Below, one piece after another: positions 4,372-30,864 of a stretch of DNA of 55,037 nucleotides (its first letter is position 1; each line of letters starts with the position of its first letter). The notes under the pieces are model-generated. The model ran no database searches and was not told the origin of the DNA. It worked only from the letters and a program-made list of their open reading frames with translations. Both the position numbers and the translations under genes were made by a program. This DNA comes from Candidatus Kerfeldbacteria bacterium (GTDB lineage: Bacteria; Patescibacteriota; Patescibacteriia; UBA9570), in the NCBI GenBank assembly GCA_016207285.1, contig JACQPW010000033.1:1-55037 (forward strand), read 5' to 3'.

Positions 4372-4815
4372 ATGAGCGTTTTTGCCACCATCCAAACAGA
4401 CATGATTTCCGCCATGAAAAGCAAGGTAGAAATTGAGGTCTCCACGTTGCGTGGTTTAAAAGCGGCTATCCAAAAAGATGCGATCGACAGCAAGGGCTCG
4501 CCAGATGATGATCAGCGAGCTTTTGTTGTGTTGAAACAAGAGGCTAAAAAGCGGCAGGATTCTGTCCAAGCTTATCGGGCGGCTGGTCGGAATGATTTAG
4601 CCGATCAAGAGCAAGCGGAGTGGGAGTTGATTAAGCACTATTTGCCGGCACAGTTATCGGAAGCCGAAGTGAAGATCGTGGTGGATCAAGTGGTGCAGGC
4701 CAATGGGGACAATAAAAATTTTGGTTTGTTAATGAAACAGGTCATGCAACAGTTGGATGGTCAAGCCGATGGAAAGGTCGTATCCACTCTTTTGAAACAA
4801 GCACTGACTGTATGA
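4372..4815 (+). CDS. yqeY: GatB/YqeY-domain protein
   Basis: ATG at 4372 (Met57 of the listed 4204 ORF) gives ~147 aa. Typical YqeY pattern: IQTDMISAMKSK...LRGLKAAIQKD...QEAKKRQDSVQAYRAAGRNDLADQEQAEWELIKHYLP...FGLLMKQVMQQLDGQADGKVVSTLLKQ. Its position after rpsU matches the conserved rpsU-yqeY pairing. Confidence 0.8.
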   Translation: MSVFATIQTDMISAMKSKVEIEVSTLRGLKAAIQKDAIDSKGSPDDDQRAFVVLKQEAKKRQDSVQAYRAAGRNDLADQEQAEWELIKHYLPAQLSEAEVKIVVDQVVQANGDNKNFGLLMKQVMQQLDGQADGKVVSTLLKQALTV

Positions 4816-7800: not shown

Positions 7801-10800
7801 ACGATACTAGCTATTCGTTACGAGCTCGTCCAGCTACCTCTGATTGTTTGATCTTAAACGATGCCGGTGATTACGACTGGAGTGTGACGCAGCCAGTTGG
7901 TGCGGACATTTTAAGTTTTGGTGTGAACGATGCTACTACTACGGATATTGCTTATGGTACTACAACCACTACCACGACCAATGGTTATAATACCGTTTGT
8001 TTAGAAGGTGACGATGAGACCAATGATGGCTTAGCGACTGTATCAGCCGAGCTACTAGATTCTAGTGACGGTTCTGTGGCGGCTAGTGATGATGCTACCA
8101 TCGAAGTCGACTTTGGTTTCTGTACCCAAGATAGTGATTGTTACACCGAAGATTGTCGTGATACCTATTGTGATGCTACTACTTCGCATTGTGCTCCCGA
8201 TATTATTGCCTTTACCCCTAACAATAGCACTGGTTCTGACGTTGGCCCCAGTGGTTGTGTCACCTTGTCTGGTTGTTATTTTGGTAACGATCAAGATCAA
8301 GAAGGTTCGTGTACGTGTACGCAACTGGAAGTGAATGATTCCGATACGAGCGATAATGAAACCTGTAGTGTGGATGAAGGGGGCTATAATTGTTTGTTGC
8401 AAGATGGCATCCAAACCTGTAGTTTAGATGCCGATTATTGTGCGTTAGGTGAGACTTGTTCCACTGAATCTACCAGCGCCAATTATGATCTCGGTTTCTT
8501 CCGTGGTTGTGATTGTACGATGACCGATGGAACGGATCGCACCTGTCGCGTTGAAGAAGGCTATACCGAGTGTGTCGCTCAAGGTGATACAGAAACGTGT
8601 GATAGCACTGATAGTAGCTTTGTCGATGGTGGTACGGGTAGTGTTAGCTTTACGGATGCAGCTGCCACTGATTATCCGGCTTCTTTCCCATCGGAAGTGA
8701 TTTGTGAAGATATTTGGGATAACGATCAAGTGATCGCGCAGGTACCGGGCTCGGTGGCTGCGGGTGATTATAGTTTAACCTTAAACAGTTACTATAGTTT
8801 GACTGATATCTACGGTAGCGCCGGTGATGATGCTACAGAGTCAGATTGTACGGTGGGCAGTAACGCTACTCCTTGTTTGTGCCGCGCTGACCCAGATACG
8901 GGACGAGAAAGCACCACTACCGATTTATATGGTGAGGGTTTTGATCTTTTGACTACTGACGGTAATCAGGAGGTGACTTTTTCCCCTTCCACTAGCCGGT
9001 TACCGGCTGATGGTTCAGAAATCTGGACGAGTGCCAATTTCATTGATGAAGTCGTGGTACCAGAAGGGGCGGTGTCAGATGACGAAGGCGTGCAGTTGGA
9101 AAATGATACTTTAGCTTTAACCAGTAATGCTTTATCATTTTCAGTCAGTTGTGGCTCTAACTTAGATTGTGCCACTGGGTGTTGCAGTGCTGGTCAGTGC
9201 GCCACCGCTGAAACTTGTAATGCCTGCGAAAATAGTACAGATTGCACCTATGGAAGCTGCCTATCCGAATGCGCCGATGGCATGTGTGAACCCTACATTA
9301 TTGATGTTAGCCCAGAAGCTGGTGCAGTGGGTCAGCCAGTGACTATTCAAGGTTGTCATTTTGGAACGTACTATAATCCGTCCACCTATACAACAGGTAG
9401 TAAAGTGACTGTGGACGGTATTACCGCCGAATTAGCCTGTAGCGAAGTAGATTCTTGGAATAACCTGCAGATTATTGCCACGATGCCGGATGATATTTTT
9501 GTTGATACCTCTGACACCACGGCCGATGTTGTCGTTACTCAAGTGTATACCAGTGGTGGTGCCCAGGTAGCCCAAACCAGCAACACGGCCGTCTTTAGCC
9601 AGGATGAGAGTTGTTCGGAAGTTGATCTACCAGTATTGTGCGATGCTACCCCAGGCTATAGTCCGTTGACGACCAGTTATGATGTGACCCTAGAAGGGGA
9701 GCAGTTTGCGGATGAAGATAGCGGTTACTGCACCTGTAACACCACTTCCTTAGGTGATTGTGAGATTGCAGAGGGTTCCGCCTCTTGCACGGTTTCTGCT
9801 ACCACCACCTATTATGTCAATCCAGATTTCACCTCTGAAACCTGTGCTACGACCACCTCTAATGCCTATAGTGTCTATGATGGTACGCTTGGGTATTGTG
9901 TGTATACCGATCCTGATGGTGCCACCACAGTGTATTTAGATCCAGAGGATCCTACAGAAGTCTGTGCGACCACGACCACATCAGCTGATACCAATGGTTA
10001 TTCGACCTATTCAGCGACCGATGGGTACTGTACGTACACTGATCCTACAGATGCAACACAGACCTGTGTGATAGCCGTAGGCAACGCTAGTTGTAGTGTA
10101 TGTACCATACCGGTTGACAGCAGCACCTGCTCATTAACGGCTAGCGAGACCTGTTATGTGGATGAAGACGCTACATCAACCACCTGTTCTTCCTCTGTGA
10201 GTAACTTCACCAATTTAGATGGTTCGGCTGAATATTTCAATGATGTGACAGCCAGTGTGGACTGGACTCAATATTACGACACTCAATATATTACCGATGT
10301 GCCCGATGGTTCTGAAACCGGTGATGTACTGGTTATTGCCACTACCGATGCTGGCACCCAATGCAGCAGTAATGGTCTGGAATTCCCAGTCACGTGTGAT
10401 AGTTGCAGTGAGTGTGGTAGCACGCGGGATAACTTATTGAACTGTAATTTGGATTACGATCCCAGTTTTGGTAGTTGCACGGCGGACACCGCTGGGTTCT
10501 GTCGGGATGAACCAGATTCCTGTTGTAATCTATCTAGTTGTGCGTATGATGATAGTGATGGTACAGATACCGGCACCTGTGCCGCTCAACCGATTATTCA
10601 GTTTGACGATGAAGATGCCGATGCCTTGAGTGACTACATCGAAAGTGACTACAGTATGGATGCCGGGTTACAAGATACGGATGATGATGACACGATTGAT
10701 TCTGACGAAGTCGGCGTAGATAATGGTAATTATGCCCTGGATGTGATTGATTCAGCGACCTTCCCCACACCTGGTCAAAATCCTGTCTGTTCTAATGCAC

Positions 10801-13229
10801 AAATTAGTATCCAATTTAGTCAGCCGATTACCACGAGTGCTGTCTTTGACTTCAACGATAACGATACTGTATTGGACGAGAATGGAGACGATATTACTGA
10901 CTTTACCGATGACGTGGCTCCTGAAGATATTGAATTTACCGATTATATCCGGTTGCATTACTCAAGTTTTGCTGACACGAGTACGGTCACAAATATTAGC
11001 GACATAGTTTTATCCAATGATGGTACTACGTTAACGTTCGAGCTGAGTCGTGTACTCCGTCATGGCGTAGAGTTTGAGATTATTATCGAAACGGATGATT
11101 ATCGCTCCGGGATTATCGATGCCGAAACTGGGGTGCCGCTAGGCTGTACTACGGAAATGGAGGATGATGGGTTGTGTTACGATGGTTACCTACGATATAC
11201 CTTTACGACCACTTCCTTGACGCAGTACAGTGATTCCTGTTCACCAGCGTATGTGGTGCTGGAAGCGGACAGTGAGGATTTTCAAGATGCCAATTATACC
11301 TTTAGTGAGTCTGAACAGGAAGAAAGCTTTACTGCCACTGTGTATGCAGCCGGCGAGGATCTCTATCCAGATAATGGTACAACAGATGCAGACGCTGATG
11401 GGGTTGATGATGGCGACGATGATCAGCCGATCACCCGGATTGATGATGGGGCGGACGCTGGGTTTGATTGGACGTATGCGTGGGATCCGATCTATGACAC
11501 CATCGAAGATTTAGAAGCCGCTTCTTGCCCGGTAGCTGGTATTATTACGGATGAGGAAGTCGGTAGCTGTAGCTGTGATGTGGAGGAAAGCTGTGATATT
11601 ACCGCTGGTGATGAAACTTGTACGACCAGCAGTGGTGTCAGTTGTTACACCGATTCACCCAATGCCGAATGTGATGCCTTTGATTCTGGCTATGATCCTA
11701 CCGATAACAATTGTGTCTGTACCGTATCCGATAGTTGCACCATCGAAGCAGCCGAAGCTAGTTGTACGGTGGATATTAATGACACTACGGTTACGTGTAC
11801 AACCGATTCTACCGCTACCACACCAGTCTGTGATACTTCCGATACTGGTTGGTCTGATGGCAGTTTTGTGGAAGATACCGATACGCAAACCTTGACCGCC
11901 GATACACCAGATAGTAATGGTAGTAATACCGATACCATTGAGGTGAGGGTAACGGGAGATGGCTCGGTGGAACAAGGTTGGGGTAGCTCTGTACCTGCCG
12001 CCGAAGGGGATGATCTAACGGATAGCATCTTATTTGATCTCTACTATTGTGATGCCAACTACTTGGTCAGTTATTCGAATGCGGACTATAATTTTTACTG
12101 GCGCTATTGTCGTGGTACCGACCCGCAAGATGAAGACTTCTTGCCTGATTTTTCTACGCCGGTGTTTGAACGCAGCGATACAGACATTGATACCGCCTAT
12201 GGTAGCGATCAAGAATTTATTTACGAAGTTGCCTTTAAAGATGCGACAGCCGGGAGCAACGATCCTACCACTAATAATAACTTGGTGGCAGTGCGGGTAT
12301 ACCCCAATGACTTTGATGGTGATTTAACCACCCCAGGGGATAGTGTGAATCCAGATCTGTGGTACTTATTGAATACCAATAATGCGGATGCTTCCTCTAG
12401 CGCCACGACCATTGATGGTTATGATGCGGTCGAGGTGGGTAACACTACCTATGTAGCGGCCACCAACTTAGACGATGGTACTGGTATTGTTTCACCGTAT
12501 ATTTATGTGATTGCCTACAGCAGCGATGCCGATGAGGAGACGACAGCAGTCGTAGCAGCTTTACTAGAAGGCTTTAAGTTCAACCGTAATGATGAACTAT
12601 CCGCTAGTTGTGCTATTGAGAAAGTTGCGCTCATTGCGGATGCCGACCGAGTAACGGATCTAGGAACCATTGCCTATGTATTAAGCAGTTATTATTACAA
12701 TGATACGGATTTGAATGGTACAGATGATTTCCCAGCCCTGGCCAGTGGGTCGTATATTTCTGGATTTACTACCTCTATCTGGCCGTCGTGGAACGATACC
12801 TTTGGTACGCTATTGGGGCAGACCTTAGATACCGATCCTGTGAATGCCTTTGCTGATGCCGAAACCAGTTGCCCGTATGATCCACCAGATTTGTCCGCCG
12901 GCGAAACGACCGGTACGTATTATGATGAAACGGGCACCTGTTGGGATCCAGTGCTAGAAGATTTCTATGGTCCAGCCGATTCAGAGCTCTATCTCTATCA
13001 ATACCATGATGCCGACGATTTTGCGCTCTATACTAACTTAGAATATGATGGCACCGGTAGTTGGATTGAGGCCAAATATGATCCTTGCACCTCCTATTAC
13101 GATGATGGTACAACGGCGACGACGGCTGACGCTATTAGCGCTTACTCTGATAGTGGTTGCGGTACGTTCGATTATATAGTGGAGGATAGCGAAACGACTG
13201 ATAATACCACCTATGACGACCTCTTCTAG
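4812..13229 (+). CDS. giant (2805 aa) membrane-anchored, highly acidic, Cys-rich surface protein with Ig-like (SbsA/Big_5-like) and IPT/TIG-like modules
   Basis: Uninterrupted 8.4-kb ORF whose ATG overlaps the yqeY stop (ATGA). The N-terminus has a signal-like segment plus two TM helices flanking GGFVWMTAQGDEEKLTKAKAIL. IPT/TIG-like segments follow (e.g. SGPPGQYVTIRGSNF...VYFDGVEVEV; SPEAGAVGQPVTIQGCHFG). There are many CxC-containing Cys modules, and the composition is D/E/T/S-rich and K/R-poor. Confidence 0.85.
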   Translation: MNRYKRALQLFLVSASGWVLTTQAAWAQVNTSFDFVLGDTSPIDIIIAIINWTLGILALIAVVIILYGGFVWMTAQGDEEKLTKAKAILRNALIGLVIILASWGIARYIINLFLDLTGATNDEYSTPYEPYESSSGSPFYVDHSNPADGDEDVTLCHIIAVTFSYPLNESSVDSSSFTVTIPEDSVTNPGGGLGNSVSCTSDNQCLSGVCSDAGSCDGDAVAGSFAFSESSYAAVFYPSTDYLSDTTYRVELSTAVEGISPDTGAVYNLTSGDAKRIFTFTTGNTTDDIPPKVDVTDVTPSPDDDEADICLNPTFQVSFSESLDPASPADTNVWLYAAASTPTDSLDLGTIRLTSIGGEADDTIATSPELELSSYTDYGLSLYSGDSTTDTFEGAIYDTCGNPLSGDFDDDMEGSPTDDFVDPASSGLDQAFCSCTTGTDSCNVDIGSSSCDVDADTTCTLDATCSDTSDDYVGFTYQWNFTTGDEPYCLPNVEDITQEDYYYSEDEDPTGDTGSEDTGIVLIEGEYLYPFYDVDFNNNMSAAGMNCFDTDFTSSMSCFVDNIGSTAITVRTPVASQTGRISVENADGADTSADTAIILSPYVRNTSPLSGPPGQYVTIRGSNFIDYDPDDTTSERGHVYFDGVEVEVMCDDGWDDDQIIVRVPDEYVDGDTPLIQVLTVGPDESADTSDDKYSNHEGFTVTSGNPGPGICELDPSCSDSGLDDVAVIGENFGTSGTAYLDPPDADYEAWPASQWDVYNSTYDSQSVVTDGASSPFTAPNDYTLTLGNSEGISNGLDFDITCHDSPQVFQYYQCDLEQDTYYLPNPTGYTDNACVNSVIYFGFTNDMDDATVEANATIYQCNSTATPYDATTCTTSVAGTYVTDYLNAAYLGGDSSDTLDGTDDIDGDGDINEYDAYSGYTFYPDGGLDAAYYYLVTLPVTITNKAGVPLGSEYSWYFAVRDDTANCVADYLALNPAAQRVNSYDSFDACLDQYEYNDTSYSLRARPATSDCLILNDAGDYDWSVTQPVGADILSFGVNDATTTDIAYGTTTTTTTNGYNTVCLEGDDETNDGLATVSAELLDSSDGSVAASDDATIEVDFGFCTQDSDCYTEDCRDTYCDATTSHCAPDIIAFTPNNSTGSDVGPSGCVTLSGCYFGNDQDQEGSCTCTQLEVNDSDTSDNETCSVDEGGYNCLLQDGIQTCSLDADYCALGETCSTESTSANYDLGFFRGCDCTMTDGTDRTCRVEEGYTECVAQGDTETCDSTDSSFVDGGTGSVSFTDAAATDYPASFPSEVICEDIWDNDQVIAQVPGSVAAGDYSLTLNSYYSLTDIYGSAGDDATESDCTVGSNATPCLCRADPDTGRESTTTDLYGEGFDLLTTDGNQEVTFSPSTSRLPADGSEIWTSANFIDEVVVPEGAVSDDEGVQLENDTLALTSNALSFSVSCGSNLDCATGCCSAGQCATAETCNACENSTDCTYGSCLSECADGMCEPYIIDVSPEAGAVGQPVTIQGCHFGTYYNPSTYTTGSKVTVDGITAELACSEVDSWNNLQIIATMPDDIFVDTSDTTADVVVTQVYTSGGAQVAQTSNTAVFSQDESCSEVDLPVLCDATPGYSPLTTSYDVTLEGEQFADEDSGYCTCNTTSLGDCEIAEGSASCTVSATTTYYVNPDFTSETCATTTSNAYSVYDGTLGYCVYTDPDGATTVYLDPEDPTEVCATTTTSADTNGYSTYSATDGYCTYTDPTDATQTCVIAVGNASCSVCTIPVDSSTCSLTASETCYVDEDATSTTCSSSVSNFTNLDGSAEYFNDVTASVDWTQYYDTQYITDVPDGSETGDVLVIATTDAGTQCSSNGLEFPVTCDSCSECGSTRDNLLNCNLDYDPSFGSCTADTAGFCRDEPDSCCNLSSCAYDDSDGTDTGTCAAQPIIQFDDEDADALSDYIESDYSMDAGLQDTDDDDTIDSDEVGVDNGNYALDVIDSATFPTPGQNPVCSNAQISIQFSQPITTSAVFDFNDNDTVLDENGDDITDFTDDVAPEDIEFTDYIRLHYSSFADTSTVTNISDIVLSNDGTTLTFELSRVLRHGVEFEIIIETDDYRSGIIDAETGVPLGCTTEMEDDGLCYDGYLRYTFTTTSLTQYSDSCSPAYVVLEADSEDFQDANYTFSESEQEESFTATVYAAGEDLYPDNGTTDADADGVDDGDDDQPITRIDDGADAGFDWTYAWDPIYDTIEDLEAASCPVAGIITDEEVGSCSCDVEESCDITAGDETCTTSSGVSCYTDSPNAECDAFDSGYDPTDNNCVCTVSDSCTIEAAEASCTVDINDTTVTCTTDSTATTPVCDTSDTGWSDGSFVEDTDTQTLTADTPDSNGSNTDTIEVRVTGDGSVEQGWGSSVPAAEGDDLTDSILFDLYYCDANYLVSYSNADYNFYWRYCRGTDPQDEDFLPDFSTPVFERSDTDIDTAYGSDQEFIYEVAFKDATAGSNDPTTNNNLVAVRVYPNDFDGDLTTPGDSVNPDLWYLLNTNNADASSSATTIDGYDAVEVGNTTYVAATNLDDGTGIVSPYIYVIAYSSDADEETTAVVAALLEGFKFNRNDELSASCAIEKVALIADADRVTDLGTIAYVLSSYYYNDTDLNGTDDFPALASGSYISGFTTSIWPSWNDTFGTLLGQTLDTDPVNAFADAETSCPYDPPDLSAGETTGTYYDETGTCWDPVLEDFYGPADSELYLYQYHDADDFALYTNLEYDGTGSWIEAKYDPCTSYYDDGTTATTADAISAYSDSGCGTFDYIVEDSETTDNTTYDDLF

Positions 13230-17407: not shown

Positions 17408-18559
17408 ATGGCCAATGGTAATAAATATATGGAAGTAAAACCAGATGTCGAAACATTCGCTAAAATCTTAGTGGTCGGTGTTGGTGGCTCCGGTGGTTCA
17501 GCCGTTTCGCGCATGATTGATAGTGGTCTTAAGGGCGTGGAATTTGTAGCGGTGAATACCGATGCTCAGGCTTTGCACCACAACCCAGCGAAACGCAAAA
17601 TTCATATTGGTAAAAGCACGACCCGTGGTTTAGGAGCCGGGATGGATCCCAGTGTTGGTGCCAAAGCGGCTGAGGAAACGAATGAAGAATTAGCCACGAT
17701 GTTAAAAGGTGCCGACATGGTCTTTGTCACTTGTGGCTTGGGTGGTGGCACTGGTTCTGGTGCTGGGCCGATCATTGCCCGCATGGCGCGTGAGGCTGGT
17801 GCCTTAACTGTAGCCGTGGTCACACGACCGTTCGCCTTTGAAGGTGCTCAACGTGGTCAAATTGCTGATAGTGCTTACAATGAGATGGCTGATGCCGTGG
17901 ATACCATTATCACCATTCCGAACGATCGGCTATTGCAGATTATTGATAAGAAGACCTCTTTACTGGATGCGTTCAAGACAGTTGATAATGTCTTATTTCA
18001 AGGCGTTCAAGGTATCTCGGATTTAATTACAGTGCCAGGTTTGATTAACGTTGACTTTGCTGATGTGAAATCGGTCATGGCGAACGCCGGTTCGGCTTTG
18101 ATGGGGATTGGTAAAGCCAGTGGGGAGAGTCGGGCAGTAGATGCCGCTAAATCCGCTGTGGATAGTCCTTTACTAGAATTAAGTATTGATGGTGCCAAAG
18201 GGATTTTGTTCACCATCACCGGTGGTCCGAATATGGGTATGTATGAGGTGAATGAAGCAGCCCGGGTGATTACCGAATCCGCTGACCCATCTGCTAAGAT
18301 TATTTTTGGTGCTAATGTCGATGAATCCATGGGTGATGAAATTAAGATCACGGTCGTAGCCACTGGGTTTGGTCAGCCAGCCAAAGCGGCCAAAAAGATC
18401 CAAGCCGTTCGTCCAACCCCGTTCAGTAAACGGGATGATATGGATACCCCAGTTCCAGCCTCGTTCCGCAACAAAAATATCATGGATGAGAAGCCGGTCG
18501 ACAATTCCGATGATGATGACCTGGAAGTTCCAGCCTTCATCCGGAAGAAGATGATGTAG
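17408..18559 (+). CDS. ftsZ: cell division GTPase FtsZ
   Basis: 383 aa. Tubulin signature GGGTGSGAGP, NTDAQAL, and an acidic C-terminal peptide DDDLEVPAFIRKK. An alternative start at Met8 is possible. Confidence 0.95.
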   Translation: MANGNKYMEVKPDVETFAKILVVGVGGSGGSAVSRMIDSGLKGVEFVAVNTDAQALHHNPAKRKIHIGKSTTRGLGAGMDPSVGAKAAEETNEELATMLKGADMVFVTCGLGGGTGSGAGPIIARMAREAGALTVAVVTRPFAFEGAQRGQIADSAYNEMADAVDTIITIPNDRLLQIIDKKTSLLDAFKTVDNVLFQGVQGISDLITVPGLINVDFADVKSVMANAGSALMGIGKASGESRAVDAAKSAVDSPLLELSIDGAKGILFTITGGPNMGMYEVNEAARVITESADPSAKIIFGANVDESMGDEIKITVVATGFGQPAKAAKKIQAVRPTPFSKRDDMDTPVPASFRNKNIMDEKPVDNSDDDDLEVPAFIRKKMM

Positions 18560-18569
18560 CCTTATAACA

Positions 18570-18598
18570 ATAACCCTGTACTTTATGTGCAGGGTTAT
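18570..18598 (+). terminator. hairpin after ftsZ (first of two)
   Basis: ATAACCCTG / CAGGGTTAT 9-bp stem with an 11-nt loop; no clear T tract. Confidence 0.4.
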
Positions 18599-18611
18599 GT
18601 TGGATCAAGCA

Positions 18612-18648
18612 AATAACCCCAGGTATAAAACCTGGGGTTATTGATTTT
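18612..18648 (+). terminator. intrinsic terminator after ftsZ
   Basis: Perfect 12-bp stem AATAACCCCAGG / CCTGGGGTTATT with a 7-nt loop, followed by GATTTT. Confidence 0.75.
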
Positions 18649-18687
18649 ACATACGTATTGGCTTTACAAATTGACCTTAATTCACTA

Positions 18688-19008
18688 GGGTGTTCGCGGA
18701 GGTGTCTCTTGCGTCAATCACGGTTCTTCCTTGGTGTCCCTTCAACCAGCCCGGTTTTCGCGGCGCTGCGTCGGCTCTCCCACGAGATCGGACGCGCCAA
18801 GTCGCGCCGGCTGTTCGAACGCTTCGCTGCCGACCCTCCCCAGGGTCTCGAAGCGGTGCTCGACTGGGTCGAGCGGGCAGTGGATCAACTGGAAGTCAAG
18901 CCGGCTGACCGTGCTCCCATGCGGCGGGTTGTGGCCGTCTGGGTGCGAGCGCAGCTCGGTCTGCCCAGGTCGTCGGCCTGATCGGCGACCAGTGGAGACA
19001 TGCGAGAC
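18688..19008 (+). other. high-GC island containing a foreign-looking ORF or gene fragment
   Basis: An abrupt jump to about 65-70% G+C. All three + frames are open. The frame of the 18658 ORF shows coding-like periodicity (GC2 much lower than GC1 and GC3) and an Ala/Arg/Val/Leu-rich helical-looking peptide (...RLFERFAADPPQGLEAVLDWVERAVDQLEVKPADRAPMRRVVAVWVRAQLG). There is no ATG or GTG start in that frame inside the island. Confidence 0.4.
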
Positions 19009-19052
19009 GGCCGGCGCTGTATACCCATACAGCGACCGGCCTTTCCCTTTTT
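19009..19052 (+). terminator. GC-rich intrinsic terminator closing the high-GC island
   Basis: GGCCGGCGCTGTAT / ATACAGCG(A)CCGGCC stem with an ACCC loop, followed by TTTCCCTTTTT. Confidence 0.7.
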
Positions 19053-19092
19053 CAAACCGTACGTTACACTTTAACTAATTAATCTTTAGCTG

Positions 19093-19575
19093 TTGCAGCC
19101 TATGCACATCGTACAAAAACTAATAGCTGTTACCACATTAACCGCCGTCACGTTGTTGCCGGTCGTGGCTAGTGCCCGTACCTATACCAAAGTAGAGGTA
19201 CTAGAGATTTATGGTGCTGAACTATCTACTGGTTATGAACTTAATAATCATAACTGTGATTATGATTTTGTCACATCTGATTTAGTGATCGATATCAAGA
19301 GTGCCTTTACCGATGGTACGATTGATAACGCCTATATACGCTATCTGGGACATAAATATAAAAACTTAACCGGCGATATTCATTCCAAAAACAAGAAGTA
19401 CTATCAAATTTTGTTGCAGAGTGCTGATGATACCTTAACTTCAGAATATGGCCAACTCACCTTTACGCTCAATATCAAGAAAAAGAACCCATATGCTACC
19501 TCGCACGGTAAAGCTAAGGTGAAACGGTCTGCCAGTGATGATTACGAAGCCTGTAGCTCGAAAGCCACCTTCTAG
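19093..19575 (+). CDS. small secreted hypothetical protein
   Basis: 160 aa with a signal-peptide-like N-terminus (LIAVTTLTAVTLLPVVASA). No recognisable family. Confidence 0.5.
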   Translation: MQPMHIVQKLIAVTTLTAVTLLPVVASARTYTKVEVLEIYGAELSTGYELNNHNCDYDFVTSDLVIDIKSAFTDGTIDNAYIRYLGHKYKNLTGDIHSKNKKYYQILLQSADDTLTSEYGQLTFTLNIKKKNPYATSHGKAKVKRSASDDYEACSSKATF

Positions 19576-19576
19576 T

Positions 19577-21724
19577 TTACCGATAAATAACGTATTCTCG
19601 ATCTGGCCGAAGTTCTAATACCAGTTCGTTGGTGTCGGTATCATAGCTCCAGTATTCGTGATCTAGACCTAACTCTGTCACGCGGCTGGGAGCAGTGTCA
19701 TACGGTAAACGTACGATGATACTGGTGTTCGTCTTGTCATACTCTAAGGCTAACTCATCAATGTTTCCGGCAGATAAGCGATAGGTCTTGTTCACTGGCA
19801 AGTTCAGTACAAAGCGGCCACCACTGGAGGAACCTTCTTCCACCATATCGATACTAGCGTCCGTGTCCAGGCGTGTAATGGTTAGCTCATCGGTATAATG
19901 TTTGTCACGGGGGTCATTAAAGACGAGGCGACCATAATCAATGTGGGGGCAAACGTAGACATTCCAAATGGTTTTGGTGACGCAGCCAGCGGTATAATGA
20001 AAATCAAGTAATGGCAATGTGACTGCTCCCGTTTTGCTATTGTTGAGCACAGCAAACATATCGCCAGCGTGGGTGACATCATCGATAAAAAACTCCTGGG
20101 CGTGTGTAAACGTTAGGTCAGCAAAGCTGTTATTGGGTGACATGGCGTAGGGATTGGTGGGTAAAATACTCACCGCGGCTTGGGTTTGGTCACCTTCCGT
20201 TTTAAAATTTTTGAACGTTGTTTGTCTGACATGTACTGGCCCGTCGTAAAAGGCGAAACCAAACTTATAGGGCATCCAACCTTCCGTTGAATCGTTACCG
20301 GATTCACCGATCACCAGTGACTTGGTCAGCGTGACGTTATTGGCAGCAAAGCTGGCACCGATGCGGTTATCCAACAGAGTAGCGTCCGTAAAGGTCAGAT
20401 CGCGCCCGCGTACCCAAATGCCGGTACTGGCGTTTTTATAAGCCGTCACACTGTCGAAGGTAGCCGGCTTCGTAGGCATATAATAGACAGAGTCAAAGCC
20501 TTCACCATCAATGGTTAACCCGCGCTCACCATTAGAATGGGTTGTATTATTGGAGAACTCTTGTAGCCGCATGGTGCGGGGTACTATGTCGCTATCTTCC
20601 GCGCTCATACCCGTGGCAGCATCTAGTAAAAAGAACCAGTAACCAAAGCCAGCCGATCCAGCCGCGCTGTTACGGCGGTAGGTATTTTGCGGGTTGGTAA
20701 TCCAAAAGGTGGCTGGTTCAGCATCAGAATCCAGGGTGGCTCCAGCGGCGGTATCGACACCAAGATTATGAATAAATTGATTATCCTCTTCTACACCATC
20801 TTCCAAAAAGTAACAGTGTCCTTTGGTGTGATAAGCTACATTATCTTGAATCAGTACATTACTAGTGGCATGGATGGTGATGCAGCGGTTACTGGAATTG
20901 GTAATGGATACTTGTTTGATGTAGGAACCAGTCCCATCACCAACCAGGTGAAAATGTAGGGGATACTGCGCCAAGGTAGCGTAGGTGCCTAGCGTGTCAA
21001 ATTGAGCTCCCACCACGGTGGCGACAGTACTGCCATTGAAAATGATGTGGCCGGCATCATACTCTTCATCACCACTAAACTGGATATTGTGTGACAGTAA
21101 ACCGACTTCAGCAAACTCATGGTGAGCACCGTAGTGTTTATAGTCTAGCTTATCTTCTAGGGTGAGTACTTTTTTGTTATTGGAGACCGCTGCAATGGTG
21201 TGCGCCTCAGCTTCCGTTGGGTCATAGCTGGTCGAAGCAATGACAATCTGATCGCCAACTTGCCAATCGACCGCTTGTTTCAGACGGAGGCGTTTACTGT
21301 CACGTGGTGCCGTAATGGCTAAGCGTGTCCAGGTACGGTCATGGTTAGCGCCATGGACAGAGAAGATACCATTGTACACTCCCAGTCGCTCGGTTTGTCC
21401 GGTGATGGCAACTTGGGTAGTCACCGAACGAGGGATAGGGTTGTCAGTTGTTCCCATTTGCCAACTACCGTAGACAGCCGCTTCATCCAGCGTCAACCGA
21501 GTATTCTGATCAGTCGAAAAATCTAGAGTGCCATTGATCGTCAACAAGTCAATCACCACATCTGATACCGCATCATAAGTAACCGTGTGATCTTCCGCAA
21601 CTTCTACTGTATCATGTTCACCGGGCACGGTAGCTGCATCCCAAGTGGCGACATCGCTCCAGTTACCTGACTGTACCGAGGTGATCGTAGCGGCTTGGAC
21701 TGCTAATGCGATAAACCATTGCAT
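19577..21724 (-). CDS. secreted G8-domain / right-handed beta-helix protein
   Basis: G8-domain hallmark at the N-terminus (SGNWSDVATWDAATVPGEHDTVEV...HTVTYD...LLTINGTLDF), followed by beta-helix-like repeats. The start is placed at Met12 (ATG 21724, MQWFIALAVQAA signal) because an extended -10 element sits 7 nt upstream. Confidence 0.75.
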   Translation of the reverse strand: MQWFIALAVQAATITSVQSGNWSDVATWDAATVPGEHDTVEVAEDHTVTYDAVSDVVIDLLTINGTLDFSTDQNTRLTLDEAAVYGSWQMGTTDNPIPRSVTTQVAITGQTERLGVYNGIFSVHGANHDRTWTRLAITAPRDSKRLRLKQAVDWQVGDQIVIASTSYDPTEAEAHTIAAVSNNKKVLTLEDKLDYKHYGAHHEFAEVGLLSHNIQFSGDEEYDAGHIIFNGSTVATVVGAQFDTLGTYATLAQYPLHFHLVGDGTGSYIKQVSITNSSNRCITIHATSNVLIQDNVAYHTKGHCYFLEDGVEEDNQFIHNLGVDTAAGATLDSDAEPATFWITNPQNTYRRNSAAGSAGFGYWFFLLDAATGMSAEDSDIVPRTMRLQEFSNNTTHSNGERGLTIDGEGFDSVYYMPTKPATFDSVTAYKNASTGIWVRGRDLTFTDATLLDNRIGASFAANNVTLTKSLVIGESGNDSTEGWMPYKFGFAFYDGPVHVRQTTFKNFKTEGDQTQAAVSILPTNPYAMSPNNSFADLTFTHAQEFFIDDVTHAGDMFAVLNNSKTGAVTLPLLDFHYTAGCVTKTIWNVYVCPHIDYGRLVFNDPRDKHYTDELTITRLDTDASIDMVEEGSSSGGRFVLNLPVNKTYRLSAGNIDELALEYDKTNTSIIVRLPYDTAPSRVTELGLDHEYWSYDTDTNELVLELRPDREYVIYR

Positions 21725-21725
21725 A

Positions 21726-21740
21726 TGGTATAGTATAGCA
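21726..21740. promoter_or_regulatory. overlapping divergent extended -10 promoter elements (candidate leaderless starts)
   Basis: + strand: TGGTATAGT (21726-21734), then 7 nt, then ATG 21742. - strand: TGCTATACT (21740-21732), then 7 nt, then ATG 21724. The two -10 hexamers overlap by 3 bp. Confidence 0.5.
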
Positions 21741-21741
21741 T

Positions 21742-24417
21742 ATGATACATAAACCATTCGTTTGGACTGTAGTCGTGAGCAGCTTTTTATTCATTATCTC
21801 AACGGTTCCGGCGCTCGCTACAGGAACCTTTTATGTGGATAGTGTCACTGGTAATGATGCTAATAATTGTACATCTGCCGATACGCCTTGCGTAACCGTC
21901 GCCGGCGCCAAAGCCTTGATCGTAGATTTGGCCGACCCCTCGAATACGACGTTGAAGTTAAAAGGAACATTTACAGATCAGGTCAGTTTCGCAAACACTG
22001 ATGTGACCAAACCCGATACGCTTGATGGTCTGCGCATCACAGCAACCGATCAATCGAATCAACCAGTCGTGAATACAGCAGTGGCGAGCACCGCGGCAAT
22101 CGCCATCGTAAATATCAATAATGTGACAGTGGATCATCTGACGATTACGGGGGGAACCAAAGGGGTGTATGTAGTAGGCAGCGGAGGTTTTGTCCAAAAT
22201 ATCTCAATTCATGATAACAATGTGTCCGGGGTGTCTTCCACAACCACGAGTTCTGGCATTGAACTGACCTACGTCAAGTCTGGCACAATTCGTAACAATA
22301 CCATTCACGATATGGCGGCAACCGTGACTGATGTGAGTTATACGTATCTGTACGGGGTTTATGTGTTGTATGGGTATAATATTGCCATACAGCAGAACAC
22401 AATCTCCAACGTAGGTATCAACAGCACACTCGCTGCTACAACATCTCACGTTAGCTACGTGTATGGATTATATCTGTCCAACATCACGGACGGCATCGTT
22501 AAACAAAACACACTGTCGGATATGTTTGTGACGGAAACCGCCACCTTAGCCGATACCAATCAAACCACCAGTGTGTTTGGTTTCAACGGTTCTAATTTGT
22601 TCGATGTGGCCGTGACCAACAACACGTTTACCAATTTGACCAGTACCATTTCGGCTGATGTAGACGGCAACTATTGCACCAGCGCAGTATATGGTTTATT
22701 GGTATCGGATCTGCGGCCTGATGATGGTGTCGGTTTGATCAATCAGAATACCATCGATACAGTCACATCCACCCAAACCTGCGATTCCGGTGCACCTATC
22801 GCGCAGGGTATGAATATTCAGTACGCCTTTGGGGCGACAGTGGAAGACAACACAATTCAGCACATCACCACCTCTCATATCGCGAATGGAGAAGATGTGA
22901 GCACTGGGGGATCGGCCACCGGCATTTCTGGCCCATTCTACGGTTCTACTGTGACCTTGTCACAGAATGTGATTAGTGATGTGGGTGCTACAGCAGTCTA
23001 TTCCGGTGCCGATTCCGGCAGCAATGTAACCGTTCGTGGTATTTACCAGTATGTTGGCTCGGGCAGTATTGTCGGAAACACTATCTCGGATCTCTCTATC
23101 TCAATCGATAATAACGATGCGGCTGGCTACTATGATTATGCCACACTCTATGGTATCGATTCGAGCTTTGCTGACAACGTGGTGTTAAAGAATAATACCA
23201 TCAAGCAAACTACCTTCAATTACACTACCGCTGGTGTGGATGGCACGACCCTGTTCTATCTGTATGGTCTATCAATAGGCTATGCCGATGGCGCTGTGAT
23301 TCAGAAAAATACCGTCAAAGATGTGGAGGTGGCCACAGCCGCTACAGATGTCACTGATGCGAGTTACGTCTCCATGAATACGTACGGGTTCTTTTTTAAC
23401 AGATTACCCAATGCCGTCATCAGCAACAATCGTCTGCAGCGTTTCTCTATTTCAGGCGATGCCGGGAACGCCAACGACTTATTCAACTATGTTCAAGGGA
23501 TCAACTTGAATTCTGTGTCTGGGACAATTCACAAGAACCGCATTGTGAATGCTGATGTTACTTCGACCATTGTGGCTGATGCGGCGAGTCAATTTTTCTA
23601 TGCGATTGCTGTATCCACCCAAAGCAGCCAAACCGCCATCACGGACAATATCGTGCGTGATATCACTACCACCACTTCTGGAGTTGGCACGAGTAACACG
23701 GTGATGGGTATTAATGTGTCCTACGGGCCAGATTTGCTCTTAACCGGCAACCAAATTCGACCGTTCACGAGTACCGTCTCGGCCGGTGAAGCGTTAGCGC
23801 ACTATGGCATTTACTTTTCGTCTGATGCGAGTCATGCTCGAATTCTGGATAATATGCTGTTGGGTAATGCCACGGCGGCTACAACGGTGAGTACCGGCAT
23901 CTACCTGTCAATTGATTCCACGGTTGATGCGGATCTGATTCATAATACGATCGCTGACTGGGAATATCCAGTGCGTGCGGATGGCGGGAATAAAATTTAT
24001 CTCCGCAATAATATCTTAGCTGCATCCGGATCCGACAGTTACGCTTTAGCGATTGGGCGAGATACAATGAACAATGATACCTTTAAATCCGACTATAACC
24101 TACTGTATAACGCCACGGTAGCGGATCAACTGGTGTACGATACCGATAACACCTTAGCAATCTTGTTGGCTGATTGGACCAATGTGGGTGGTAGTTATGG
24201 CTATGATGTGAATTCCATCAATAAGATTCCAAAAATCAATGCGCTCGGTCGTTTGCAAAAGGGTTCTAAAGCCATTAATGCCGGCAGTAAGGATTATCCT
24301 TACAGCAAAGGTGATGTTGAACTGACCTATTTAGCCACTGATGTGAATGGTGACAATCGGCCAATCAACGCCAAAAAGAAACAGGTAGACATTGGTGCTG
24401 ATGAGTACAAGAAATAG
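21742..24417 (+). CDS. secreted parallel beta-helix (PbH1) repeat protein
   Basis: 891 aa with signal peptide VVVSSFLFIISTVPALA. Many ~22-25-aa repeats of the type IRNNTIHD, IQQNTISN, VKQNTLSD, IHKNRIVN, ITDNIVRD, typical of pectate-lyase/NosD-like beta-helices. Confidence 0.8.
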   Translation: MIHKPFVWTVVVSSFLFIISTVPALATGTFYVDSVTGNDANNCTSADTPCVTVAGAKALIVDLADPSNTTLKLKGTFTDQVSFANTDVTKPDTLDGLRITATDQSNQPVVNTAVASTAAIAIVNINNVTVDHLTITGGTKGVYVVGSGGFVQNISIHDNNVSGVSSTTTSSGIELTYVKSGTIRNNTIHDMAATVTDVSYTYLYGVYVLYGYNIAIQQNTISNVGINSTLAATTSHVSYVYGLYLSNITDGIVKQNTLSDMFVTETATLADTNQTTSVFGFNGSNLFDVAVTNNTFTNLTSTISADVDGNYCTSAVYGLLVSDLRPDDGVGLINQNTIDTVTSTQTCDSGAPIAQGMNIQYAFGATVEDNTIQHITTSHIANGEDVSTGGSATGISGPFYGSTVTLSQNVISDVGATAVYSGADSGSNVTVRGIYQYVGSGSIVGNTISDLSISIDNNDAAGYYDYATLYGIDSSFADNVVLKNNTIKQTTFNYTTAGVDGTTLFYLYGLSIGYADGAVIQKNTVKDVEVATAATDVTDASYVSMNTYGFFFNRLPNAVISNNRLQRFSISGDAGNANDLFNYVQGINLNSVSGTIHKNRIVNADVTSTIVADAASQFFYAIAVSTQSSQTAITDNIVRDITTTTSGVGTSNTVMGINVSYGPDLLLTGNQIRPFTSTVSAGEALAHYGIYFSSDASHARILDNMLLGNATAATTVSTGIYLSIDSTVDADLIHNTIADWEYPVRADGGNKIYLRNNILAASGSDSYALAIGRDTMNNDTFKSDYNLLYNATVADQLVYDTDNTLAILLADWTNVGGSYGYDVNSINKIPKINALGRLQKGSKAINAGSKDYPYSKGDVELTYLATDVNGDNRPINAKKKQVDIGADEYKK

Positions 24418-24419
24418 GT

Positions 24420-24898: not shown

Positions 24899-25474
24899 AT
24901 GAAAATCCATAAAAAACCAGCTAAAAAAACGAATCCCAAGAAAAATTTGGGCCAGGTGCATGTCTACACGGGTGAAGGCAAAGGCAAAACTTCAGCCGCG
25001 CTTGGCATTTTGTTACGGGCGGCTGGGCAAGGTCATCGTGTGTTGATGATCCAGTTTATCAAAGGGGATCGAGCCGCCGGTGAATTATTGGCGTTCCAAA
25101 ATTTGGGTAAGCATGTCGAAATTTTGCAATTTGGCCGAGCCGATTTAACCTCGATGGCTGATCTGCAAGCCGTGGATGCGTATTTCACCGAGCAAGGTCT
25201 GAATTATGCTCGTGAAGCCATGCGTAGTCGGCGCAAACGTCCCGATGTCCTGATTTTAGACGAGATCACAACTGCGGTAGAGCACGGATTAGTGCGCGTG
25301 GAAGAAGTGATTGATGTGGTGGATAACCGCCACCGCAATACGGAAATCATTATGACTGGCACAACCACACATCCAGCGTTATTGAACCTGGCTGACTTAG
25401 TAACGGTGTTATACCCGGCCAAACACTATTTTGACCGGGACAACTTTGAGGCTAGATCAGGAATTGAATTTTAG
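24899..25474 (+). CDS. cobO: ATP:cob(I)alamin adenosyltransferase (CobA/CobO/BtuR family)
   Basis: 191 aa. GQVHVYTGEGKGKTSAALGILLRAAGQGHRVLMIQFIKG P-loop region typical of the family. Confidence 0.85.
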   Translation: MKIHKKPAKKTNPKKNLGQVHVYTGEGKGKTSAALGILLRAAGQGHRVLMIQFIKGDRAAGELLAFQNLGKHVEILQFGRADLTSMADLQAVDAYFTEQGLNYAREAMRSRRKRPDVLILDEITTAVEHGLVRVEEVIDVVDNRHRNTEIIMTGTTTHPALLNLADLVTVLYPAKHYFDRDNFEARSGIEF

Positions 25475-27652
25475 TATCTTGGAGGTCGCTTTGGAATATT
25501 CTCGGCGATCTTTAGCGCTCGGTTTCCAGGTAGCTTTCAATTTGGTGCCGTCCGCCACGTTCACCTGCAAACTGGCCCGGCCTTTAGAGTTGGTGCGTAC
25601 AGAATCAATTTTTTTCCACTCACCGGATTTTTTACGATACACTTTAACGGTTTTATGTTTCAGATTCTTAGCTGTGGCGGCATCACGTAACCTGATTGAA
25701 ACATTTTTTTGATTTTTTTCCGTCAATCTCAATTTGGCACGTGATTTAATGTCGAAGACACCGCGGTCGTTACCGGCCATCAGTCCATCAAAGAACATGG
25801 CGTAAAAGTTTTCTTGTTTCAGGCCTTCGTACCATTCGCCCCAGGTGTCACCACCGTCACTCGATTTATAGACCGTGCCGTTTAGGCTGCTGCCATCCTG
25901 ACCAGTGACATAGAGCGTAATAGGACTGGTGGTGGTCTGTGGAGTTAACGTATCCAAATTATTGGCATCTTCGATAGTAATTTCCGTCCAGGTGCTGCCG
26001 CTGTCCGTTGATTTCCACAGGCCTTCTGGAGTGGTTACCAGCAATACAGTATCGTTGTCTGGGTGAACTAATAAGCTTGTGATGATTTGTCCTGAGACAT
26101 CACCACTGACCTCGCTCCAACTGCTGCCGTTATAGGTGTACACGCCAGGAGCAGACGCATCTCCATCCACCCCAACATACAGGGTATCGTCAGACGCAAT
26201 CGACATGGATGTAGCCGGAAAATCGTTGGTAAAGCCCAAATCAGTCCAGGTTTGGCCAGCATCTGTACTCATAAACACTGCGCCGTTGTCATCGCCCGTT
26301 AAATCATAGTTACCAATCGCTGCATACAACGTGTTGTCATCAATGCGTGACTGCACGATTTCGTAAGCCTGACCCTGAAACTCGGGAGCTGAGGCAGTAG
26401 ACCAGGTATCGCCACCATCAGTGCTATACGCCAGATTTTCTCCACTACCAGATACAACTACATTGGCATCATCTGGATTGACCCAGACCCCATGCACATT
26501 ATTAGTACTGCCAGCTGGCAAAATAGGATACTCCCAGGTGGGCTCATCAGCATCGAAGTTTTCCGTTTTCGCTAAGCCACCATTCGCGCCCAGCCAGACG
26601 GTCACTTTATCACTGGTTTGGGTAATATCATACACTTTGACTGACGCCACGCCATCCACAATATCTGTCCAGGTGGCGGTGCGGTCAGTACTCTTGGCTG
26701 GCCCCATACTGCTATTATTGAAGACCACATTCTCATCTTCCGGATCAACGGCTATTAAATCTGCATAAATGCTCGACAGGGGAGTATCACTGCCATAATC
26801 TGTCCAGGTTGGTGAGCTAACGGTCGGGTTATCGGTGTACATAAATCCAACATATAACCGGCCAGTCGTATCAAAGGCTAACCCACTGCCACTATCAATG
26901 GCAGTCCAGTTGTCACCACCATCTGTAGTGATGTAATTGGTGCTGGTAGCCACTCCTGAAGTGGTGGCGAAATTATCACCATCAGTTGGGTTGACCGCTA
27001 CTTTCCACAAACTTGTACCTTCAGCCATGCCGTTATTGGTGACTTCCAGGTCAGTCCACGTTTCACCACCATCCGTGCTTTGCCACAAAGCTTCTTGGTC
27101 AACAATGGCGTAGAAGACATCGGTATCTGGGGAAGCGGCTAAATAACTCATGTCGGCACCTTCAGAAACCGTGAACAGATCGAATGTTTCACCACTATCT
27201 GTGCTTATACCAACCTGTCCGTTACCTGCGTCTACTACTAGGCGATTATGTGCACTTACGAGTACACTACCGACCGTCCCTGCAAGGTTAGGACTGATGT
27301 CTTCCCAAGTTGTCCCTTGATCTGTTGTGCGCAGCAAGCTATCACCAATCAAGGCAAAAGCCGTACCGCTCGTTGGGTCAACTTCTACTGCCGCCCCATT
27401 CCCGTAATTGACGTCACTGGGAAGACCAGACCAGGATTCTCCCAAATCAGCCGACACAAATAACCCATTAGGGGAAAATGTGATCATGTATGCCGTATCG
27501 CTCAGTGGATCAAGGGCGAAATCAGCCGCTTGACCACCATACAAGCCAAGGTTAGTGGCGATGGCCGTATTTTGGGTGTCTACTTCTTGAGCGGTCGTTA
27601 CAACACCTAGGGTTAGACCTAGTAAGGTAGTAAGATAAATCCGTTTGAACAT
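25457..27652 (-). CDS. secreted BNR/Asp-box repeat double beta-propeller protein with Lys-rich C-terminal domain
   Basis: 731 aa with signal peptide MFKRIYLTTLLGLTLGVVTTAQ. At least 10 S-x-D-x-G-x-T-W Asp-boxes (STDGGETWTD, TTDGGDNWTA, STDGGDTWST, STDAGQTWTD, STDSGSTWTE, SSDGGDTWGE ...). Its 3' end overlaps cobO by 18 nt, in convergent orientation. Confidence 0.8.
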   Translation of the reverse strand: MFKRIYLTTLLGLTLGVVTTAQEVDTQNTAIATNLGLYGGQAADFALDPLSDTAYMITFSPNGLFVSADLGESWSGLPSDVNYGNGAAVEVDPTSGTAFALIGDSLLRTTDQGTTWEDISPNLAGTVGSVLVSAHNRLVVDAGNGQVGISTDSGETFDLFTVSEGADMSYLAASPDTDVFYAIVDQEALWQSTDGGETWTDLEVTNNGMAEGTSLWKVAVNPTDGDNFATTSGVATSTNYITTDGGDNWTAIDSGSGLAFDTTGRLYVGFMYTDNPTVSSPTWTDYGSDTPLSSIYADLIAVDPEDENVVFNNSSMGPAKSTDRTATWTDIVDGVASVKVYDITQTSDKVTVWLGANGGLAKTENFDADEPTWEYPILPAGSTNNVHGVWVNPDDANVVVSGSGENLAYSTDGGDTWSTASAPEFQGQAYEIVQSRIDDNTLYAAIGNYDLTGDDNGAVFMSTDAGQTWTDLGFTNDFPATSMSIASDDTLYVGVDGDASAPGVYTYNGSSWSEVSGDVSGQIITSLLVHPDNDTVLLVTTPEGLWKSTDSGSTWTEITIEDANNLDTLTPQTTTSPITLYVTGQDGSSLNGTVYKSSDGGDTWGEWYEGLKQENFYAMFFDGLMAGNDRGVFDIKSRAKLRLTEKNQKNVSIRLRDAATAKNLKHKTVKVYRKKSGEWKKIDSVRTNSKGRASLQVNVADGTKLKATWKPSAKDRREYSKATSKILKFNS

Positions 27653-30767: not shown

Positions 30768-30864
30768 TGCATTGACAAAAGTGGTTTAAGCTGGTAAAGA
30801 GAGGCCAGCTCTTTGAGCTTGAGCAGGTCTTGCTCTGCCCCCAACTCACTTTCCCCGGTGACCA

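Follow-up and report, generated by a model that had tools for sequence, protein, structure and literature searches.

We analysed a stretch of 55,037 nucleotides (nt) from Candidatus Kerfeldbacteria bacterium (NCBI GenBank assembly GCA_016207285.1, contig JACQPW010000033.1, positions 1 to 55,037), which we call the window, and found that a short GC-rich island immediately downstream of ftsZ contains a gene for a 90-amino-acid (aa) basic protein. We call it the small gene. That the island is a real and conserved protein-coding gene is, in our judgement, highly probable. The full description, namely a complete and conserved orphan gene that encodes a small protein, is expressed on its own and is probably of foreign origin, we consider probable on the whole. 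A first-pass annotation, made from the sequence of the window, had described the segment as foreign-looking and as a possible gene fragment, perhaps frameshifted or truncated. Instead the gene is complete, with 90 codons, a start codon and a ribosome-binding site. The atypical composition on which that description was based is real; the proposed source in a high-GC host or a mobile element is unproven, with zero homologues outside the clade in the libraries searched.

The island (18690-19046) is 66% G+C (236 of 357 nt) in a window with a mean of 0.470. It has the highest G+C of any 250-bp segment of the window (0.688); the next best outside the island reaches 0.568, at 30826. Recounting gave the same 81/120 G+C for 18721-18840 and 22/60 for 19081-19140 as the first-pass annotation, and the same G+C by codon phase (0.82/0.50/0.76) for codons 18781-18978. 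Such periodicity was seen in none of 5000 shuffles. The TGA stop that it had placed at the end of this frame is present as well. The annotation was also correct in seeing no in-frame ATG or GTG within the island, but it had overlooked the TTG at 18709.

The small gene has its own promoter, Shine-Dalgarno sequence (SD) and terminator (Table 1), and four related genomes described below contain an orthologous copy. No parts of the locus are more conserved across the five genomes than the promoter and the terminator. Mean pairwise identity across the five copies is 100% for the -35 and -10 hexamers and 93% for the terminator, in which 39 of 45 columns are invariant. The promoter and the GC-rich terminator postulated by the first-pass annotation both hold up, the latter as a hairpin with a T-rich tail. 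The stretch from the SD through the start codon has 90% identity and includes GGAGGTGT, which is invariant across the five copies. By comparison, identity is 56% in the coding sequence (CDS), 37% in the leader (6 nt after the -10 hexamer) and 40% in the aligned block of the 3' untranslated region (UTR). The TTG start lies 6 nt 3' of a perfect GGAGG and aligns with ATG in two relatives (L138 and L140) and with TTG in the other two (L139 and L141). The stem of the terminator is 13/14 nt long with one bulge and a 6-nt loop, is followed by TTTCCCTTTTT and matches inverted repeat I1; a simple terminator scanner overlooked it because of the bulge. The motif occurs once per locus and solely after the small gene. 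A repetitive element of the REP type was considered and rejected because of this single occurrence.

Table 1. Features of the small gene and of its immediate neighbours in the window.
Feature	Position	Strand	Remarks
Promoter	-35 18663-18668; -10 18686-18691	+	TTTACA, 17-nt spacer, TAGGGT; hexamers invariant in five copies
SD and spacer	SD 18698-18702; spacer to 18708	+	GGAGG, then 6-nt spacer TGTCTC; SD invariant
CDS of small gene	18709-18981	+	90-aa basic, mostly helical protein; TTG start, TGA stop; 67% G+C, third-position G+C (GC3) 0.71
3' UTR	18982-19008	+	GAGACA 18995-19000 and second GAGAC 19004-19008, both complementary to spacer UGUCUC
Intrinsic terminator	19009-19052	+	Stem GGCCGGCGCTGTA / TACAGCGACCGGCC, loop TACCCA, tail TTTCCCTTTTT
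ftsZ	17408-18559	+	383-aa open reading frame (ORF); upstream neighbour and synteny anchor, outside the unit
Hairpins ending ftsZ transcript	18570-18598; 18612-18642, then GATTTT	+	Inverted repeats I3 and I2
Downstream ORF	19102-19575	+	ATG at 19102; N-terminal hydrophobic stretch, signal-peptide-like; outside the unit

Based on these elements, a sigma-70-like promoter would start transcription at about 18698. The leader would be very short, essentially just the perfect SD. Translation would then run from the TTG to the TGA at 18981, and the terminator hairpin would end a monocistronic mRNA of about 355 nt.

An exhaustive HMMER search of 1.84 billion proteins gave exactly three matches at E<=1e-3, which align nearly end to end with the small protein (92, 82 and 82 aa; E 3.5e-16, 5e-11 and 6e-5). 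A profile built from the first matches recovered a fourth homologue of 86 aa. A word-indexed search of 5.8 billion proteins found nothing for the 107-aa ORF of the island or for the other five frames joined; the word index is too coarse for so fast-evolving a family, and just the exhaustive search succeeded. No viral or metagenome contig contained exact 22- or 24-mers of the island, nothing was found among plasmids and phages by blastn or tblastn or in viral contigs by a profile scan, and look-ups of the exact products of the window's FtsZ and of the 107-aa ORF found none on record in the collections searched.

All four homologues are encoded directly 3' of ftsZ and 5' of ORF160, the G8/CEMIP gene or nrdR. 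In L138 (P0001; NCBI GCA_964611225.1) the order is FtsA, FtsZ, small gene, G8 on the minus strand, NrdR and CobA. L139 (P0002; Logan SRR22387934) has the same order as the window, with FtsZ, small gene, a 158-aa ORF, G8 on the minus strand, an 891-aa ORF and NrdR. In L140 (P0003; ENA ERZ1292633, record name Hain_H41) the small gene follows the C-terminus of FtsZ, and in L141 (P0004; Logan SRR22387837) it is followed by a 158-aa ORF, G8 on the minus strand and NrdR. The FtsZ proteins of the relatives have the Pfam domains Tubulin and FtsZ_C, and the FtsZ of the window is 98-99% identical to those of L138 and L139. Its best matches among species representatives have 64-66% identity, include Kerfeldbacteria, Doudnabacteria, Falkowbacteria and Uhrbacteria and place the window in the Patescibacteria, also known as the candidate phyla radiation (CPR); closer metagenome relatives were retrieved via FtsA.

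The presence of the small gene is patchy. The window and L138 to L141 have it, and it is absent from L082 and L085. In L082, with an FtsZ 92% identical, ftsZ is followed by 125 bp, nrdR, a cobA-like gene and the gene for a class II ribonucleotide reductase (RNR). In L085 two unrelated minus-strand genes occupy the gap between ftsZ and nrdR. The corresponding gap in the window (18560-24419, 5.8 kb) contains the island, the downstream 157-160-aa ORF, a minus-strand gene for a 726-aa G8/CEMIP beta-helix protein and a gene for an 891-aa NosD-like protein. Because the contents differ between L082, L085 and the window, the gap is a variable hotspot with the island at its left edge.

The alignment of the five copies has several features of a coding sequence. 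Frame +0 is the sole frame that is free of stops in all five, and every other frame has stops in most copies. Gaps within the ORF are 3, 3, 24, 3 and 6 nt long, all multiples of three. The start codon varies only between ATG and TTG, and the stop position is conserved in four of the five copies. The mean BLOSUM62 score per column is 2.10 in frame, compared with 0.80-1.45 in the other five frames and 0.94 ± 0.16 in column shuffles, of which 0 of 1000 reach the observed value. The amino-acid substitutions are conservative and the constraint is weak. The invariant SD and the ATG/TTG start also lend what would be indirect support for translation. The first-pass annotation had suggested a better reading of the upstream part in another frame; the orthologues align over their full length in a single frame. 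We agree with its preference for a coding segment over a structured RNA.

The small protein evolves fast and is weakly constrained, and the expression signals show far stronger conservation than the CDS. Across the five close genomes, aa identity is 98-99% for FtsZ (dN 0.00-0.01, dS 0.84-1.2; nonsynonymous and synonymous divergence per site), 94-97% for NrdR (dN 0.02-0.04, dS 0.40-1.64) and 87-94% for G8 (dN about 0.06, dS 0.45-1.96), and it is 38-49% for the small gene (dN 0.29-0.73, dS 0.57-1.0). Since dS of the small gene tracks that of its neighbours, the gene has been inherited vertically since the common ancestor of these genomes. Three measures weigh against strong constraint on the protein: dN/dS is 0.5-0.8, differences are spread nearly evenly over codon positions (40/26/38, for example), and the ratio of nonsynonymous to synonymous differences (pN/pS) is 0.74 in frame, modestly below the 0.89 and 1.13 of the shifted frames. 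The 891-aa NosD-like protein (window 21742-24417, L139 4411-7086) is 57% identical between these two loci and the adjacent G8 protein 90%. Thus, fast evolution is not unique to the small gene within the insert.

Other readings of the segment were considered and rejected. The central 150 nt have G+C of 0.9, 0.4 and 0.7 at the three codon positions, a classic high-GC pattern if antisense. The other copies do not share this pattern and minus frames carry stops, and minus-strand coding was rejected. A target or template of a diversity-generating retroelement was rejected because the window has no second copy of the island; no reverse-transcriptase domain was found among the seven neighbouring proteins scanned. 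A cobalamin riboswitch was considered because a B12-dependent RNR and CobA are encoded nearby. This and other riboswitches, RNase P, tmRNA and the T-box were rejected on the results of Rfam and tRNA/tmRNA scans. Rfam at E<=10 over 18500-19200 gave chance-level matches, none of which covers the island, and the whole 55-kb window has no tRNA, no tmRNA and no match to any Rfam family at the gathering score.

The composition changes abruptly at both edges of the island, and L082 lacks a 5.8-kb stretch at whose left edge the island is found. This could suggest, along the lines of the first-pass annotation, either a chimeric assembly or a truncated or frameshifted piece of a gene that was recently taken up from a high-GC host or a mobile element. 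We hold both to be extremely improbable. The orthologous gene has the same junctions, and the same low/high/low-GC layout 3' of ftsZ, in four independent assemblies, and this shared architecture effectively rules out both a chimera and a recent capture. The contigs differ by 40-50% within the gene and therefore cannot stem from the same mis-assembled reads. In addition, the copies are full length with start, SD, stop and terminator, the orthologues align end to end, and dS to the relatives is like that of neighbouring genes. A reading in which the gene works through a GC-rich structured RNA of about 355 nt, which may be dual-function, with an ORF that is incidental or secondary, seems to us improbable, if less so than a fragment. 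It is favoured by the non-coding nature of the most conserved parts (promoter, 5' end and terminator), by a conserved predicted 5'-3' helix that would close the molecule, by an interior that diverges near the synonymous rate of the neighbours, and by a terminator loop and C-interrupted tail that are more conserved than termination seems to require. Single-sequence folding beats shuffles only marginally (z -2.3 on the plus strand, -2.1 on the minus strand). However, Rfam gave no match for such an RNA even at the permissive threshold, and the interior shows no covariation (alifold term +2.6; the compensatory pairs that were scored lie mostly in poorly aligned regions). The ORF is intact in one frame in all five copies, with indels of 3n and conservative amino-acid changes, its product has a confident AlphaFold2 (AF2) fold, and an invariant SD lies at the ideal distance from the ATG/TTG start. 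A protein-coding gene is the reading we retain.

We wished to account for the high G+C of the small gene, for which acquisition and native composition have to be compared. The five copies have G+C of 0.63-0.67 and GC3 of 0.71-0.75, in host loci of 45.5-46.9% G+C; GC3 is 0.39-0.53 in the 36 window ORFs of at least 120 aa that we used as host genes. None of the 36 has a 5-mer SD, and three have a 4-mer core (background, 6.4%). When any in-frame start within the first 40 codons is allowed, just two of the 36 qualify for an SD. Because the host genes lack SDs, the GGAGGTG of the small gene is exceptional. Polarised GC>AT and AT>GC substitutions number 34:11 (singletons), 18:6 and 10:5 in the small gene and are balanced in G8 and NrdR (102:87, 45:52, 20:26 and 10:7). 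The equilibrium G+C implied by the per-site rates is about 0.46-0.55, near the host value. The composition, the lack of SDs in the host, the excess of GC-to-AT changes and the absence from L082 and L085 together make a foreign origin likely, and we lean, by a narrow measure, towards acquisition of the small gene from a GC-rich source. Acquisition would date to the ancestor shared by the five genomes, once the L082 lineage had branched off, and amelioration would have been slow and would still be incomplete. Several results weigh against this. No homologue or donor outside the clade was found in the libraries of 5.8 billion and 1.84 billion proteins or among plasmids, phages and viral contigs, and no similarity to a high-GC taxon appeared in any library searched, an outcome that the first-pass annotation itself had listed among those that would count against its reading. 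Among the flanking genes scanned, which include those for the G8/CEMIP beta-helix, NosD-like, NrdR and CobA proteins, none has an integrase or transposase domain. The substitution counts are small, and polarisation by parsimony inflates the tally of common-to-rare changes when sequences are biased. As for signatures at the borders, no flanking repeats were found and there is no tRNA in the window.

The alternative is that the high G+C is native or selected, or that the gene arose de novo, and that its composition is kept by a protein rich in Arg, Ala, Gly and Pro together with the need for a tightly folded, self-closing mRNA. We think this unlikely, though it is the strongest of the competing explanations. 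The missing donor fits it, as does the persistence of high G+C in all five diverged copies, whose consensus of 0.68 suggests that little has been lost. So do the predicted extensive pairing of the mRNA, with its conserved end-to-end helix, and a promoter of host-like, low-GC composition. It fits less well with the two- to three-fold excess of GC>AT over AT>GC next to balanced neighbours, or with the high GC3 of an interior that lacks conserved or covarying helices and has a fold z-score of just -2.3. Moreover, a canonical SD in an SD-less genome looks imported, and the gene is missing from L082 and L085 as the next relatives. Elsewhere, another Patescibacteria metagenome-assembled genome (L048, CAZMHV010000003.1, 1970-2629) contains an unrelated island of about 650 bp with 71% G+C in a 41% locus. 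Its minus strand codes for a histidine phosphatase of the His_Phos_1 family (Pfam E 1.7e-8), making this a second high-GC gene within a CPR genome.

The ends of the mRNA are predicted to pair with each other. In the minimum-free-energy fold of all five copies the GGAGG, the UGUCUC spacer and the start codon pair with the GAGACA 5' of the terminator stem and the C/U tail 3' of it, with pair probabilities that are mostly 0.7-1.0. GAGACA is kept in every copy although the surrounding 3' UTR block is 40% identical. There is one compensatory pair, in which the first start-codon base and its partner change together: A-U in L138 and L140 and U-G in the window, L139 and L141. Compared with shuffled UTRs, the 9-nt duplex of spacer plus start had p = 0.05, 0.51, 0.0045, 0.000 and 0.003 in the five copies. 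Across the alignment 88.9% of cells pair, compared with at most 68% when the register is slid. Two observations weigh against a functional pairing: the duplex in L138 has a mismatch (p=0.51), and with four distinct sequences 88 of 500 shuffles reach the observed covariation. On these predictions we regard functional 5'-3' pairing as a credible candidate that we stop slightly short of favouring. If it occurs, the full-length mRNA would close on itself, masking the ribosome-binding site and/or protecting both RNA ends. We also considered that the small gene, recently imported or newly born and the only SD-driven gene of its genome, is a compact, self-limiting cassette in which a conserved mRNA panhandle around the terminator masks its own SD, and that the rapidly diversifying product has a part in the symbiont's dealings with its host or phages or regulates the adjacent, co-inserted genes for secreted beta-helix (G8/CEMIP-like) proteins; this seems rather unlikely.

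From its sequence and distribution, the product appears to belong to an undescribed family known solely from a narrow clade of Patescibacteria. Counting charged residues in the sequence gives a net charge of about +7. AF2 with five sequences gave a model with a mean predicted local distance difference test (pLDDT) of 83.4 and a predicted template modelling (pTM) score of 0.70, which contains an N-terminal beta-hairpin (strand E6-11) and helices at residues 17-27, 29-41, 47-60 and 65-83. Invariant residues include G9, T13, R21, L23, G28, R29, R33, L35, P44, G46, W53, V54, A57, R72 and W78. Searches of Pfam, NCBIfam and PHROGs gave nothing significant in any of the six frames, and PADLOC and PDB sequences gave no significant match for the small protein. 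A structure search of PDB folds had a best E of 0.6 with TM scores of at most 0.5, and BFVD gave none. As to its role, we would guess first at a small nucleic-acid-binding or regulatory protein, but we hold this to be doubtful.

The genes around the island were surveyed as well. The second of the two hairpins behind ftsZ was scored as terminator-like, and the pair separates ftsZ from the small gene. The spacer between the two genes cannot be aligned with that of the relatives, and the ftsZ terminator is not conserved. Where the window has its two hairpins, L082 (8546-8582), L139 (1293-1325) and L141 share another, GTAGAGAC...GTCTCTAC. This shared hairpin contains the GAGACA/TGTCTC words of the 3' UTR and 5' spacer of the small gene, possibly by coincidence. 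The downstream 157-160-aa ORF has 158-aa orthologues in L139 and L141, is absent from L138 and had no match in a Pfam scan. The longest-ORF starts of the 726-aa (minus strand) and 891-aa (plus strand) genes overlap by 16 nt (21742-21757); both genes probably begin further inside, and a short control region common to the two would then lie between them. A second clade-specific gene, for a 731-aa BNR/sortilin protein, lies on the minus strand between the cobA-like gene and the RNR gene (25457-27652), and a single 2805-aa ORF (4812-13229) lies upstream of the division cluster.

What had been suspected to be a foreign fragment or an artefact is a conserved orphan gene. It represents a new and very narrow family that is unusual in its alien G+C and SD, in a fast-evolving protein under invariant signals and in a possible self-masking mRNA. 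The small gene is a natural example of a compositionally alien gene that persists in reduced Patescibacteria genomes, and its expression signals are under much stronger constraint than its product. In a genome that makes no other use of SDs, a canonical one renders both SD recognition by these ribosomes and 5'-3' masking of an mRNA directly testable. The practical yield is modest, one small and narrow protein family of unknown function and fold.

Horizontally acquired 'alien' genes, in the concept of Lawrence and Ochman, undergo amelioration. Like such genes, the small gene has atypical G+C at all codon positions, is patchy among close relatives, lies in a hotspot between conserved genes (ftsZ and nrdR) and has a net flux from GC to AT. 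Unlike them, it has no identified donor or outside homologue and no integrase, transposase, tRNA or direct repeats at its borders, and its co-inserted neighbours have host-like G+C.

The small protein was also compared with the ribbon-helix-helix (RHH) proteins CopG, Arc and MetJ. Residues ~6-41 have the same predicted order of a strand, a helix, an invariant Gly-Arg turn and a second helix; in the AF2 monomer the invariant G28 lies at the turn between helices 17-27 and 29-41. Further points in common are a basic N-terminal half, a similar size and a C-terminal helical extension as in ParD-type antitoxins. Unlike RHH proteins, it has no significant sequence or profile match and no adjacent toxin gene. 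An RHH assignment, which we do not claim, is further weakened by hhalign against CopG, Arc, Mnt and ParD, which gave a probability of 4% and P 0.01 with CopG in the expected register, and by the putative strand (FFLGV), which is almost all hydrophobic and in this unusual for a DNA-contacting ribbon. No Pfam RHH family matched any family member at E<=5, and Foldseek gave no RHH match.

The predicted pairing of the mRNA has parallels among genes controlled through their UTRs. The icaR mRNA reportedly has a UCCCC anti-SD motif in its 3' UTR, and hbs is said to encode a small basic protein behind a very strong SD. Like hbs, the small gene combines a very strong SD with a small, basic product; unlike in icaR, its motif is GAGACA plus the C/U tail and not a UCCCC anti-SD. 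Its complementary segments flank the terminator hairpin, its leader is just ~10 nt, and the pairing is here a prediction from sequence, in all of which it differs from both icaR and hbs. Base-pairing between 5' and 3' UTRs is reported to control the mRNAs of Staphylococcus aureus icaR (PMC3868564) and Bacillus subtilis hbs (PMC5737220), and as in these the small gene has a 3' UTR segment complementary to its own SD and start region. By analogy, the resemblance to these UTR interactions is suggestive.

For lineage-restricted ORFans of uncultivated bacteria, we used as comparison a catalogue of novel gene families from environmental genomes (PMC10849945). Like such small proteins, the product of the small gene is short, has no relatives in Pfam, NCBIfam or structure searches and comes from a few metagenome-derived genomes, and its gene is syntenic with a signal of protein-level constraint. 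The small gene departs from such ORFans in a G+C that is higher by 20 points, a GC3 of 0.72 compared with about 0.47, the sole SD in 55 kb, and fast evolution beside near-invariant expression signals.

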